43,440 nt of DNA from Escherichia coli (GTDB taxonomy: Bacteria; Pseudomonadota; Gammaproteobacteria; Enterobacterales; Enterobacteriaceae), in the NCBI RefSeq assembly GCF_003334255.1, contig NZ_QOWU01000048.1, one strand, 5' to 3'. The notes beneath the pieces were generated by a model that saw only the letters and a list, made by a program, of their open reading frames with translations, was not told where the DNA came from and made no database searches. Below are positions 2,984 through 42,935 of this stretch, piece after piece. Made by a program: the position numbers and the translations under genes. Within the stretch, counting starts at the first letter, position 1. Each line of letters starts with the position of its first letter.

Positions 2984-3599
2984 TGCATCGCCTGTAAATT
3001 TTTAACTTGTCCTATTTTTGTCATTACCACGTATATACACATGTATAACAATTCAGATATCGTTACCAGGATATGCCGCATCAGCGGCATGGAAGGCGGC
3101 ACTCTGTTGTTTCATATGATACAGGAGTAAAACCGCCGAAGCCCGGCGTAAGCCGGTACTGATTGATAGATTTCACCTTACCCATCCCCAGCCCTGCCAG
3201 ACCATACCCGCTTTCAGCCATGAGAGAGCTTCTGTGCGCGGTCGGAGTGGTCCCGACGAGGGTTTACCCGAAGTCGGGGCGTATCTCCGCGTTAGCGGGC
3301 CGTGAGGGCCGCTTACGAGCGTGTACTGAGAACTTCCAGCGAGAAGACTGACAGCGATGAAGATGTAGTTACAACATTCATAATTAAAAGCGACTCTGTT
3401 CCGGCCCTTTGGGCCGGGGCGGGGCCGCTTTTCAGTTATGAGGGAGGGGCTTTGTGGTTTCGGTTCTGCGCTGGACCGGGGTTTTTCTGGAGGTTGTTTT
3501 TGTGTGTTGTAACTAAAGTGGCTCCGGTCGGGGCCCGCCGCTTGCGGTGGGAGGTGCATATCTGTCTGTCCACAGGACAGGCAGTGAATAGGTTTTCTT

Positions 3600-3920
3600 T
3601 TTAAATGAATGTAATTAAGTAGTTTAAAGGAGATATAAACAGGTGTTTAAAAGATACATTGCACCCTGTAAGACTGGCGGCTGGCGCTTTATGACATGAA
3701 CGGTTGTAACCTTATGGGGAAGTCCCTTGCAGTTAAATGTGGATAAGCAAAATTCCCCGTCGCTGAGGCGTATTTTGTATTAAAAACAGGGGGAATCGGA
3801 TGCTCCAGAAGGTGGATGATGAGATTGTTTTTTGCATGCGACGCTGTTTTTTTGTGCACCGGCGGGCTTCAGGCGTGCGGATGCCTCCGGCGCAGGCCGG
3901 ATTATTCTGAGGAGATCACT
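3600..3920. other. RepFIIA vegetative origin region (oriR) downstream of repA1
   Basis: AT-rich block directly 3' of repA1 containing a DnaA box (TGTGGATAA, complement of TTATCCACA) at about 3749-3757. Position matches the known IncFII replicon layout. Confidence 0.5.
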
Positions 3921-40319: not shown

Positions 40320-40395
40320 AGGAACCTCCGTTAAGGATTCTATGGACAGTCGATGCAGGGAGGTCTGAACTCCCTGCATCGGCGATTTTCAGTTT
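40320..40395 (+). ncRNA. finP: FinP antisense RNA (approximate), complementary to the traJ leader
   Basis: Plus-strand perfect hairpin CGATGCAGGGAG-gtctgaa-CTCCCTGCATCG at about 40350-40381, followed by GCGATTTTC. Overlies the traJ RBS region on the opposite strand. Ends not mapped. Confidence 0.45.
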
Positions 40396-40509
40396 CAATT
40401 TTTAACGTGGCATTAACCACGTAATTAATATACTAATTATCTGACGTATTGTCATCTTTTTGAATCATAAAAATTCTTATATTTGAACCAACTCAAACTT
40501 CATTTTCAT

Positions 40510-40893
40510 TTATTCATCATCATTTTTTGGAAAAAACCGGTCCATCTCAACAGACACTTTCTCTCTGATATCGTCAACCATACTGGCATATTCAAACTTC
40601 GGGTTTCCGGAGACATGAGGACTGAGAGACTCAATACCTAAAATCTTTGCCACCGTTGACTGTGTTTTTACAACACATTCAAGAAGAAGTTTATTAAACT
40701 CTGTCTGGTTAAACGCAGACTCTTTACGCTCCATCTGTACATCATATACGCGAAGCCCCAATTCAAGAAGCATTGAAGCAGTTCCTGAAAGGCTTATATC
40801 TTTATCTCTTGCTCCCTCCTGACGACGCTTTTCAACAATCATGTTAATTTTTTCATGAACCTCATTACTGATATACAGATTTACTCTGGCCAT
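40510..40893 (-). CDS. traM: TraM relaxosome accessory/oriT-binding protein, 127 aa
   Basis: MARVNLYISNEVHEKINMIVEKRRQEGARDKDISLSGTASMLLELGLRV... closely matches F TraM. Confidence 0.9.
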   Translation of the reverse strand: MARVNLYISNEVHEKINMIVEKRRQEGARDKDISLSGTASMLLELGLRVYDVQMERKESAFNQTEFNKLLLECVVKTQSTVAKILGIESLSPHVSGNPKFEYASMVDDIREKVSVEMDRFFPKNDDE

Positions 40894-41307
40894 AAGACAG
40901 TACCTTTTATATTCTGAAATAAGTGTTTTATTTCATTTACTCATAGTTTGGTCTGAAAAAAGAAGAGCACCCCTAGCAGCGCCCCTAGGGTCATACTATA
41001 AAAAAACGCACGGCGCTGCTAGGGGCGGCCCTAATATATCCAAATGTTTTTCATAAAATTTGTCAGTACTGACCCTAACAAGGGTCGCCATAGGGTCGCC
41101 ATAGGGTCGTCAACGACCCTATTTAATAATGTAAAATAAATTAAAATACATTATTTAAAACATAAGCTAATGATTCAAAAAGCAAATCATCAAAAACTTG
41201 TTTTTGCGTGGGGTGTGGTGCTTTTGGTGGTGAGAACCACCAACCTGTTGAGCCTTTTTGTGGAGTGGGTTAAATTATTTACGGATAAAGTCACCAGAGG
41301 TGGAAAA
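40894..41307 (+). other. oriT: oriT (origin of transfer) with F-type nic sequence; nick predicted on the plus strand at about 41216/41217
   Basis: TTTGCGTGGGGTGT|GGTGCTTTTGGTGGTGAGAACCACCAACCTGTTGAGCC at about 41203-41250 matches the F nic region. Upstream lie inverted repeats (CCCCTAGCAGCGCC ... GGCGCTGCTAGGGG) and an AGGGTCGCCAT direct-repeat/palindrome cluster (41070-41121) between nic and traM. Confidence 0.8.
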
Positions 41308-41817
41308 ATGAAAAAATGGATGTTAGCCATCTGCCTGATGTTTATAAATGAGATCTGCCAGGCCACTGATTGCTTTGATCTTGCAGGCCGGGATTACAAA
41401 ATAGATCCTGATTTACTGAGAGCAATATCATGGAAAGAATCCCGTTACCGGGTTAATGCCATCGGTATTAATCCGGTAACGGGATATGGCAGCGGACTGA
41501 TGCAGGTAGATTCCCAGCATTTTAACGAACTGGCCCGCTACGGAATTAAGCCAGAACATCTGACAACAGATCCCTGCATGAACATTTATACCGGTGCTTA
41601 TTATCTGGCAATAGCATTTAAAAAATGGGGCGTCACCTGGGAGGCCGTTGGTGCATACAATGCAGGATTCAGGAAATCCGAACGCCAGAACCAGAGACGT
41701 CTTGCCTACGCATCAGAGGTTTACCGGATTTATACCGGGATAAAAAGCAGTAAAGGTATCCGGCTTCCGGCCACGAAGAAATCACTTCCGGAAATTAACA
41801 GCGTGCAGAATAATTAA
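41308..41817 (+). CDS. Gene X / orf169 lytic transglycosylase-like protein, 169 aa
   Basis: Start trimmed to [19 protein letters not shown] (signal peptide), giving exactly 169 aa. 'ISWKESRY', 'GLMQV' and 'AYNAG' are soluble lytic transglycosylase motifs. ORF-track start at 41170 would span the nic site and is rejected. Confidence 0.85.
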
Positions 41818-42061: not shown

Positions 42062-42115
42062 ATGATAATATAAGTAAAGCCCCGAAAATTTTTTCGGGGC
42101 TTTACTTATATTATC
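42062..42115. terminator. Long perfect palindrome (about 25-bp arms), probable bidirectional terminator between convergent gene X and orf273
   Basis: GATAATATAAGTAAAGCCCCGAAAA tt TTTTCGGGGCTTTACTTATATTATC. GC-rich core stem flanked by A/T runs on both strands. Confidence 0.6.
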
Positions 42116-42935
42116 ATGACTTCCACTTTCTGAACTGTTCGGCAATCACCCATAACGCCTTGTTGATTCTTATATCACCATCAATACCTGTAATGGCTCT
42201 TGTCCTGGTATTTTTCCCGGAGGCACTTCGCCCCGATAATCCACCTTTTATCATATTCTCCTGAACCCGCTGCCAGGTTGTCCAGAGATCGTTCTGTTTG
42301 TCTTCCCGACGACGGGGAGTAATTATCTGTTCAGGTGTCACTGGCGTTTTATTTTCATCTTCATACCTGACCATCAGTGCAGCTCTGCCAAATAAATGTT
42401 GCTCGTCACTGTTAAGATGAATTTCTTTCATCGCCTCCATATTATCAGTGACCTTATCAAAGACACCGAGCACTTCATACGCTCCCTCGATAACCTGCCC
42501 GACAATATCACCTTTATGTGGAACGCGGATTTCGCCAAAATTATTTCCGCACACCAGGCCATTTGTGCAGACAAAACGAAAAATTCCGGGGATCATCTGA
42601 TAACTGGATGAACCATCATGTGAATTAAGCAGGATAATTTCAGGAACTTCCTGTCCGTTAATATGCCCTTCCCTGCGAAGACGTAACATATGTTTACTGT
42701 ATTCGCGACGTCCCAAATCACGAACCCGACTCTGACAGGCAAAGAATGGCTGGAAACCTTCATCACGTAACTTATTGATGATATTGATTGTTGGAATATA
42801 CGTATAACGTTCACTCCGGGACTCATGTTTATCACCGGAAAATACCGAAGGCACGAACTGCATTAATTCATCATCCGTTAAAGGACGTTCACGGCGGATG
42901 GAATTATACCGACCAAAACGGGAAGCTAATCGCAT
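42114..42935 (-). CDS. DUF932-family leading-region protein (F orf273-like), 273 aa
   Basis: Start trimmed to MRLASRFGRYNSIRRERPLTDDELMQF..., giving 273 aa. Position is the first leading-region gene after gene X, as in F. Family assignment is from memory. Confidence 0.65.
   Translation of the reverse strand: MRLASRFGRYNSIRRERPLTDDELMQFVPSVFSGDKHESRSERYTYIPTINIINKLRDEGFQPFFACQSRVRDLGRREYSKHMLRLRREGHINGQEVPEIILLNSHDGSSSYQMIPGIFRFVCTNGLVCGNNFGEIRVPHKGDIVGQVIEGAYEVLGVFDKVTDNMEAMKEIHLNSDEQHLFGRAALMVRYEDENKTPVTPEQIITPRRREDKQNDLWTTWQRVQENMIKGGLSGRSASGKNTRTRAITGIDGDIRINKALWVIAEQFRKWKS

Follow-up and report, generated by a model that had tools for sequence, protein, structure and literature searches.

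The window analysed here is a 43,440-nt stretch of Escherichia coli DNA (contig NZ_QOWU01000048.1 of assembly GCF_003334255.1) that contains an origin of transfer (oriT) together with part of its transfer gene cluster. Its - strand encodes traM (40510-40893), traJ, traY (75 aa), traA, traL, traE and traK, and its + strand a lytic transglycosylase. The oriT sits between the transglycosylase gene (orf169/gene X) and the divergent traM-traJ-traY-traA genes, a gene order that agrees with the annotation of pMRY15-131_1. The features on which the argument below is built are the following:

40510..40893, - strand: traM, 127 aa, with an N-terminal ribbon-helix-helix DNA-binding domain and an F-like C-terminal tetramerisation domain
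~40440..41125, no strand: predicted exchangeable specificity cassette of sbm sites and traM (flanks ~100% identical to plasmid pU60, see below)
40969..40992, - strand: putative sbmA-equivalent site, containing the left arm of a 14-nt inverted repeat and the CCCTAGGG palindrome (F columns)
40995..41000, - strand: candidate traM -10 box, TATAGT, between both arms of the inverted repeat (conservation)
41012..41034, no strand: putative sbmB-equivalent site GGCGCTGCTAGGGGCGGCCCTAA, containing the right arm of the 14-nt inverted repeat (alignments)
41026..41070, no strand: A/T-rich spacer at the F IHFb position (alignments, by position only)
41071..41119, no strand: putative sbmC-equivalent TraM array of five pentamers in 11-bp phase (alignment with F sbmC)
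41123..41156, no strand: A/T-rich segment at the position of F sbyA/sbyC, the TraY sites (positional homology with F)
41157..41200, no strand: IHFa-equivalent segment (F position and IHF consensus matches)
41203..41224, + strand: TraI recognition sequence and nic (exact sequence match)

The TraI recognition sequence reads TTTGCGTGGGGTGT/GGTGCTTT (the stroke marks the nick), which is the F nic sequence, and our alignments showed it to be identical in F, R100 and R1-type oriT. The nick falls between 41216 and 41217 of the + strand, which is the transferred strand. Hence the dense repeats that the first-pass annotation had reported at 40960-41125 do lie, as it claimed, within oriT between nic and traM, and the region is, judged by its sequence, the traM-proximal half of an F-like (MOBF12) oriT. 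In F the cryo-EM relaxosome gives the order nic, TraI, IHFa (+23 to +60), sbyC/sbyA, sbmC (to +143), IHFb, sbmB and sbmA (PMC12117103), and the same order of elements runs along the oriT of the window. Two matches to the IHF consensus with one mismatch, at 41163-41175 (-) and 41188-41200 (+), fall in the IHFa segment. The sbyA/sbyC-position segment 41123..41156 is R1-type sequence and is 95-100% identical to that of pU60. The F, R100, pSLT and window types all conserve the spacer 41026..41070; the scan for the IHF consensus gave no good match within it, and it is assigned to IHFb by position.

Several minor observations concern the neighborhood of these elements. At 41190 the window has a T where every other plasmid compared has a G (CAAATCATCAAAAAC vs CAAATCAGCAAAAAC), and this T brings 41188-41200, within the IHFa segment, closer to the IHF consensus. 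The transglycosylase coding sequence of RefSeq relatives begins at an upstream ATG (41170 here, with the frame 41170-41817), from which the reading frame crosses IHFa and the nic site; the true start is likely to be the ATG at 41309, which yields a signal-peptide-like N-terminus. Between the transglycosylase and DUF932 genes, in the leading region, lies a perfect hairpin at 42062-42117 with 27-nt arms (42062-42088 / 42091-42117) and a 2-nt loop. At the 5' end of traJ there is a perfect 12-nt inverted repeat (40351-40362 / 40370-40381), which is probably the stem-loop of finP and the traJ leader.

Within 40960-41125 the annotation had listed a perfect 14-bp inverted repeat with an internal palindrome, followed by two direct repeats and by palindromes built on GACCCT/AGGGTC, and all of these elements were recovered. 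The arms of the inverted repeat, CCCCTAGCAGCGCC (40970-40983) and GGCGCTGCTAGGGG (41012-41025), were found by a repeat finder to match at 14/14 positions with 28 nt between them; first-order Markov simulations gave, per window, an expectation of 0.017 perfect inverted repeats of 14 nt whose loop is <=60 nt. The palindrome CCCTAGGG occupies 40983-40990, overlapping the left arm by a single base, 40983, and extending from there into the loop. The direct repeat AGGGTCGCCAT is present in two exact copies (41081-41091 and 41092-41102), which are followed by a degenerate third unit AGGGTCGTCAA at 41103-41113, and the three tandem 11-nt units span 41081-41113. A 10+10 palindrome, ATAGGGTCGT/ACGACCCTAT, lies at 41101-41110 / 41113-41122 and a second one, GACCCT-aaca-AGGGTC, at 41071-41086. 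Of the hexamer AGGGTC/GACCCT the 43.4-kb window has only 8 copies vs 18 expected by chance, and 6 of these 8 are inside the 134 bp from 40987 to 41120 (clustering P ~5e-11). Thus, the repeats are real and go beyond a chance pattern. The conserved unit is the pentamer GACCC/GGGTC rather than the 11-mer, with + strand starts at 41071, 41082, 41093, 41104 and 41115, i.e. in exact 11-bp phase. We sought a palindromic reading of this motif and found none; a non-palindromic pentamer is unusual for a reader with two-fold symmetry, and this stands as a counterpoint to the interpretation developed below.

In alignments with F, R100 and pSLT the pentamer array coincides with an inverted repeat of F, GCGGTGTCGGCGCGGCTACAACAACGCGCCGACACCGT, whose centre is ACAACA; the TraM footprints on F sbmC have the same centre (PMC9282650). 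Likewise, position +143 from nic, the far end of F sbmC, projects to ~41074 in the window, the far end of the array. On the + strand the array consists of GACCC at 41071, GGGTC at 41082, 41093 and 41104, and GACCC at 41115, so that the traM-sense strand reads GGGTC-N6-GACCC-N6-GACCC-N6-GACCC-N6-GGGTC; F sbmC has the same five-slot 11-bp register. In the presumptive sbmA slot the - strand reads GACCC ta GGGGC GCTGC ta GGGGT, a 5-2-5-5-2-5 layout, and F has ACCGC ta GGGGC GCTGC ta GCGGT in the same columns: the inner pentamers (ta GGGGC GCTGC ta) are identical, whereas the outer ones are ACCGC/GCGGT in F and GACCC/GGGGT in the window. The putative pentamer register used here follows the one reportedly seen in the F TraM-sbmA structure (Peng et al. 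2014). F sbmA has been described as four A(G/C)CG(G/C)T repeats around a palindromic centre (PMC3159463), and from this text description we infer that the columns 40969..40992 correspond to F sbmA. Between the sbmB and sbmA positions, in F as in the window, lies a block, TTTTTTTATAG(T/G)AT, that the F, R100 and window types conserve. A sigma-70 consensus scan called no traM promoter, and conservation of the block suggests that it includes the traM -10 box. F TraM represses its own promoter via sbmA and sbmB (PMC3159463).

The spacing of the motifs also fits what is established for sbm sites. TraM binds as ribbon-helix-helix dimers, each of which reads one short motif (Wong et al., PMC3159463), and a TraM tetramer spans motifs that are 12 bp apart centre to centre, although 11 bp is better for a lone tetramer (PMC3159463). 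The window likewise has several short motifs, direct and inverted, at 11-12 bp centre to centre. The same mechanism is seen in the R1/pED208 TraM (PDB 3on0), a tetramer whose ribbon-helix-helix dimers recognise short motifs set roughly one turn of the helix apart. An analogous arrangement exists in ParR-parC of plasmid R1, in which a ribbon-helix-helix protein binds 11-bp direct repeats that follow one another along a single helix face; however, this is an analogy only, as parC is a partition centromere and not a transfer origin, and both sequence and protein are unrelated to those of the window.

While the architecture is that of a textbook F-like oriT, the aligned sequence is not the F allele. 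The motif of F is GCGGT/ACCGC against GGGTC/GACCC in the window; the F array slots (GCGGT GCGGC AACGC ACCGT GGGGT) differ from those of the window in 5/5 cases, the sbmA slot differs at 4/24 positions, A(G/C)CG(G/C)T is absent at the sbm positions tested, and a BLAST comparison of the array with F detected no similarity. The inverted repeat, perfect in the window, is imperfect in F. These differences bear out the earlier suspicion that the motif, which the annotation offered as a possible mark of an oriT/TraM specificity group, is unlike that of F, and the repeats are thus not identical to the mapped F sites.

Taken together, the position and geometry of the repeats, the natural swap with pU60, the specificity residues of TraM, the constraint on the pentamers, their changes in whole units, their presence on a plasmid without annotated traM and their clustering make it very probable that these repeats serve the plasmid's own TraM as binding (sbm) sites in its oriT. 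We propose that the N-terminal ribbon-helix-helix dimers of a TraM tetramer each read one short motif, which for the TraM of the window would be a pentamer, GGG(T/G)C (G(A/C)CCC on the complementary strand). The five phased pentamers at 41071-41119 would make up the site nearest to nic, the counterpart of F sbmC. In F this site has the greatest weight for transfer, and at it TraM joins the relaxosome beside the TraY and IHF sites and links it to the coupling protein TraD. The arms of the inverted repeat would be parts of the sbmB- and sbmA-equivalent sites, and as they flank the candidate traM -10 box, TraM might repress traM through them. The sbm sites and traM would then move together as one exchangeable specificity cassette.

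The TraM protein itself is consistent with this proposal. Its relatives in the PDB are 4qpo (ribbon-helix-helix domain), 3on0 (full length) and 2g7o (C-terminal domain), and its C-terminal domain is ~90% identical to that of F. It differs by one residue, A52V, from WP_000124981.1, whose UniRef cluster is named TRAM9_ECOLX; searches on ColB4-K98, pSU233 and pSU316 did not name the classical plasmid behind this entry. The substitution is at codon 52 (40738-40740), which specifies Val (DVQ) in the window vs Ala (DAQ) in the widespread WP_000124981.1, and the Val52 form has itself been recorded on 822 contigs. Allelic specificity is set by residues 3 and 5 of the beta-ribbon, as the double exchange R3K:I5N in R100 TraM gains F function 60,000-fold (PMC3159463). 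The beta-ribbon of the window TraM has Arg3, Asn5 and Tyr7. At positions 3/5 the types compare as follows: 1) R3/N5 in the window; 2) K3/N5 in F and pSLT; 3) R3/I5 in R100; and 4) K3/Q5 in the R1 type, the R1/pED208 motif being GANTC. Across five TraM types the beta-ribbon residues 3, 5 and 7 co-vary with five motif sets, with a single exception (locus L042, below), and the non-F motif of the window goes with Arg3 instead of the Lys3 of F.

To follow variation within the allele we collected 44 metagenome contigs and 5 plasmid loci in addition to the window, anchoring the collection on flanking sequence and not on the pentamers. Among the 49 arrays of standard length, 233/245 pentamers are GGGTC and the remainder GGGGC or GGGTT, so that the GGG/CCC core is invariant. 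Minor-allele counts are 12 over the 25 pentamer columns vs 40 over the 24 spacer columns, and 5/25 pentamer columns vs 8/24 spacer columns are variable; as the 49 sequences are mutually related, this contrast is modest and we use it as supporting evidence only. Arrays differ in length by whole 11-bp units, with two GACCC units in pColV-PU1, three in the window and four in the metagenome contig L041, and in several relatives the 12-bp AGGGGCGCTGCT is duplicated in the sbmA slot. Such changes in whole units, of 11 bp in the array and 12 bp in the sbmA slot, thus keep the helical phase. The commonest outer pentamer of the sbmA slot is GCCCC, the GACCC of the window being a minority form. The start of TraM is readable in 47 loci, and in 46 of these (44 with an undisrupted frame) it has the MARVNLYIS beta-ribbon; among the 46, two are truncated by the contig and one has a disrupted reading frame. 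The exception, L042 (human gut metagenome contig ORSX01000289.1, ~3370-3900), combines sbm sites of the window type with a TraM N-terminus of the R100 type (MARVILYISNDVYDKVNAIVEK...), which might point to cross-recognition between the types or, alternatively, be a recombinant cassette that is mismatched and defective.

The closest sequence to the window among the known systems is that of R100 (IncFII), with 83% identity over the whole 166-nt region, and its sites are reportedly those named sbmA-D by Abo and Ohtsubo. We accordingly considered that the repeats bind TraM without defining a separate specificity group, the TraM proteins of the window and of R100 recognising each other's sites, so that the allele would be a functional R100 variant. 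This is unlikely on balance. Besides the overall identity, R100 shares the array register and Arg3 with the window; its array (GAGTC GATCC GACCC GACTC GGATC) has one GACCC in common with it, the other four pentamers differing from GACCC at one or two positions; and in L042 sites of the window type are paired with an R100-type TraM N-terminus. However, residue 5, one of the two whose exchange switched R100 to F specificity, is Asn in the window and Ile in R100, the R100-type N-terminus was seen in L042 alone, and the mixed pentamers of R100 contrast with the uniform GGGTC of the window. The TraJ and TraY of R100 are alleles unrelated to those of the window, with 29% and 48% identity. By sequence comparison the allele of the window is nearest to R100, and it is set within an otherwise R1-like tra backbone.

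Returning to the TraM-site reading, we advance with less confidence, as something somewhat short of probable, the more specific proposal that a TraM with Arg3 and Asn5 reads GGG(T/G)C, in a phased array of 4 to 6 pentamers, as a biochemically uncharacterised group distinct from F, R1 and R100. If this were true, the 11-bp array could allow binding on the same face of the helix without the underwinding that is needed at 12-bp sites. Further, a rule would relate F to the window, in which the change of Lys3 to Arg3, with Arg3 presumably contacting a guanine, goes with C to G at pentamer position 2, and such a rule would help to predict the mutual use of transfer machinery among F-like and small oriT-only plasmids. 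More generally, TraM-sbm recognition is one checkpoint on which origin is moved by an F-like transfer system, and knowledge of the motif of this allele would help to predict the mobilisation networks of resistance plasmids. It would also supply one more example for the code by which the TraM beta-ribbon recognises DNA, while the general picture of F-like origin function is unchanged. We see here another allele of a system that is well understood, very common and, as far as our literature search reached, biochemically unmapped: a full-text search for the motif strings returned no plasmid paper, only unrelated ones that mostly concern huntingtin.

The 14-nt inverted repeat could alternatively be a DNA or RNA hairpin that acts independently of TraM: it might extrude as a cruciform, mark the single strand during transfer, or terminate or attenuate transcription ahead of traM. 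The single-stranded DNA of this region does fold at -18.8 kcal/mol (z = -3.9), and a scan found two weak terminator-like sites on the - strand (41017-41005 and 40986-40963). Nevertheless, we regard this explanation as very improbable: F and R100 have at the equivalent place an imperfect inverted repeat that keeps sbm-type motifs in each arm; in relatives the 12-bp duplication affects one arm only and so breaks the symmetry; and the inverted repeat is ~190-250 bp from nic on the last-transferred side, away from the inverted repeat to which TraI binds.

A natural exchange bears on the question of whose sites these are. R1 is represented in our comparisons not by R1 itself (KY749247) but by plasmid pU60, which we take to be of the R1 type from the N-terminus of its TraM. 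The TraJ, TraY and TraA of pU60 are 98.7%, 96% and 97.5% identical to those of the window, but its TraM only 74.8%, and the remaining tra/oriT backbone is nearly identical. Sliding identity along the DNA is 100% from 41900 to ~41142, falls to ~35%, the level of chance, over 41111-40914, rises to 50-67% in the part of traM that encodes the DNA-binding domain and to 80-87% in that for the C-terminal domain, and is back at 100% from ~40356. At the positions of the window array pU60 has GANTC motifs (slots GAATC GATTC GAATT AACTC GAATC), and across the sbm region no similarity of this R1-type DNA to the window was detectable. As the right-hand edge of the exchanged segment coincides with the end of the array, the repeats travel with traM and not with TraY, TraJ, TraI or nic/IHFa.

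The first-pass annotation had left the binder open, naming TraM and/or TraY or IHF. Its TraM alternative is favored by the position of the repeats and their co-variation with the DNA-binding domain, and the other two did not hold up. In their favor, both proteins have binding sites on the nic-to-traM stretch of F-like oriT, and in F IHFb lies between sbmC and sbmB. TraY was rejected as the binder because pU60, with a 96% identical TraY and the same sbyA-position segment, has a wholly different array; the array therefore does not follow the TraY allele. IHF was rejected because its consensus WATCAANNNNTTR, allowing <=1 mismatch, has no match within 40960-41125 but only at 41163-41200, and the pentamers are, moreover, G+C-rich. 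That the repeats are TraY and/or IHF sites rather than TraM sites is hence very improbable, slightly more so than the hairpin.

The TraM-site allele of the window is widely distributed. The 415-nt intergenic region has matches in 4446 PLSDB plasmids, and the 176-nt repeat region is present at >=95% identity in 1056 PLSDB plasmids from E. coli, Klebsiella, Salmonella and Shigella, as well as in 525/5426 complete E. coli genomes (~10%); carriers that we checked individually include a K. pneumoniae KPC-2 plasmid and two ColV plasmids. Given their clustering, the rarity of so perfect an inverted repeat, their conservation in more than 1000 plasmids and their retention in a 4.2-kb plasmid without annotated traM, the idea that the repeats are chance or hitch-hiking sequence devoid of function can practically be dismissed. 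The latter plasmid (CP099036.1, 4197 bp) is a restriction-modification plasmid with a full oriT copy at ~1900-2250, comprising nic, a window-type array (GACCC, GACGC, GACCC, GGGTC) and sbmB/sbmA-like sequence, which fits a cis role of the array in transfer. Several other plasmids of 3 kb show similar partial matches, and small plasmids with such copies look like oriT-only users of the TraM allele of the window.
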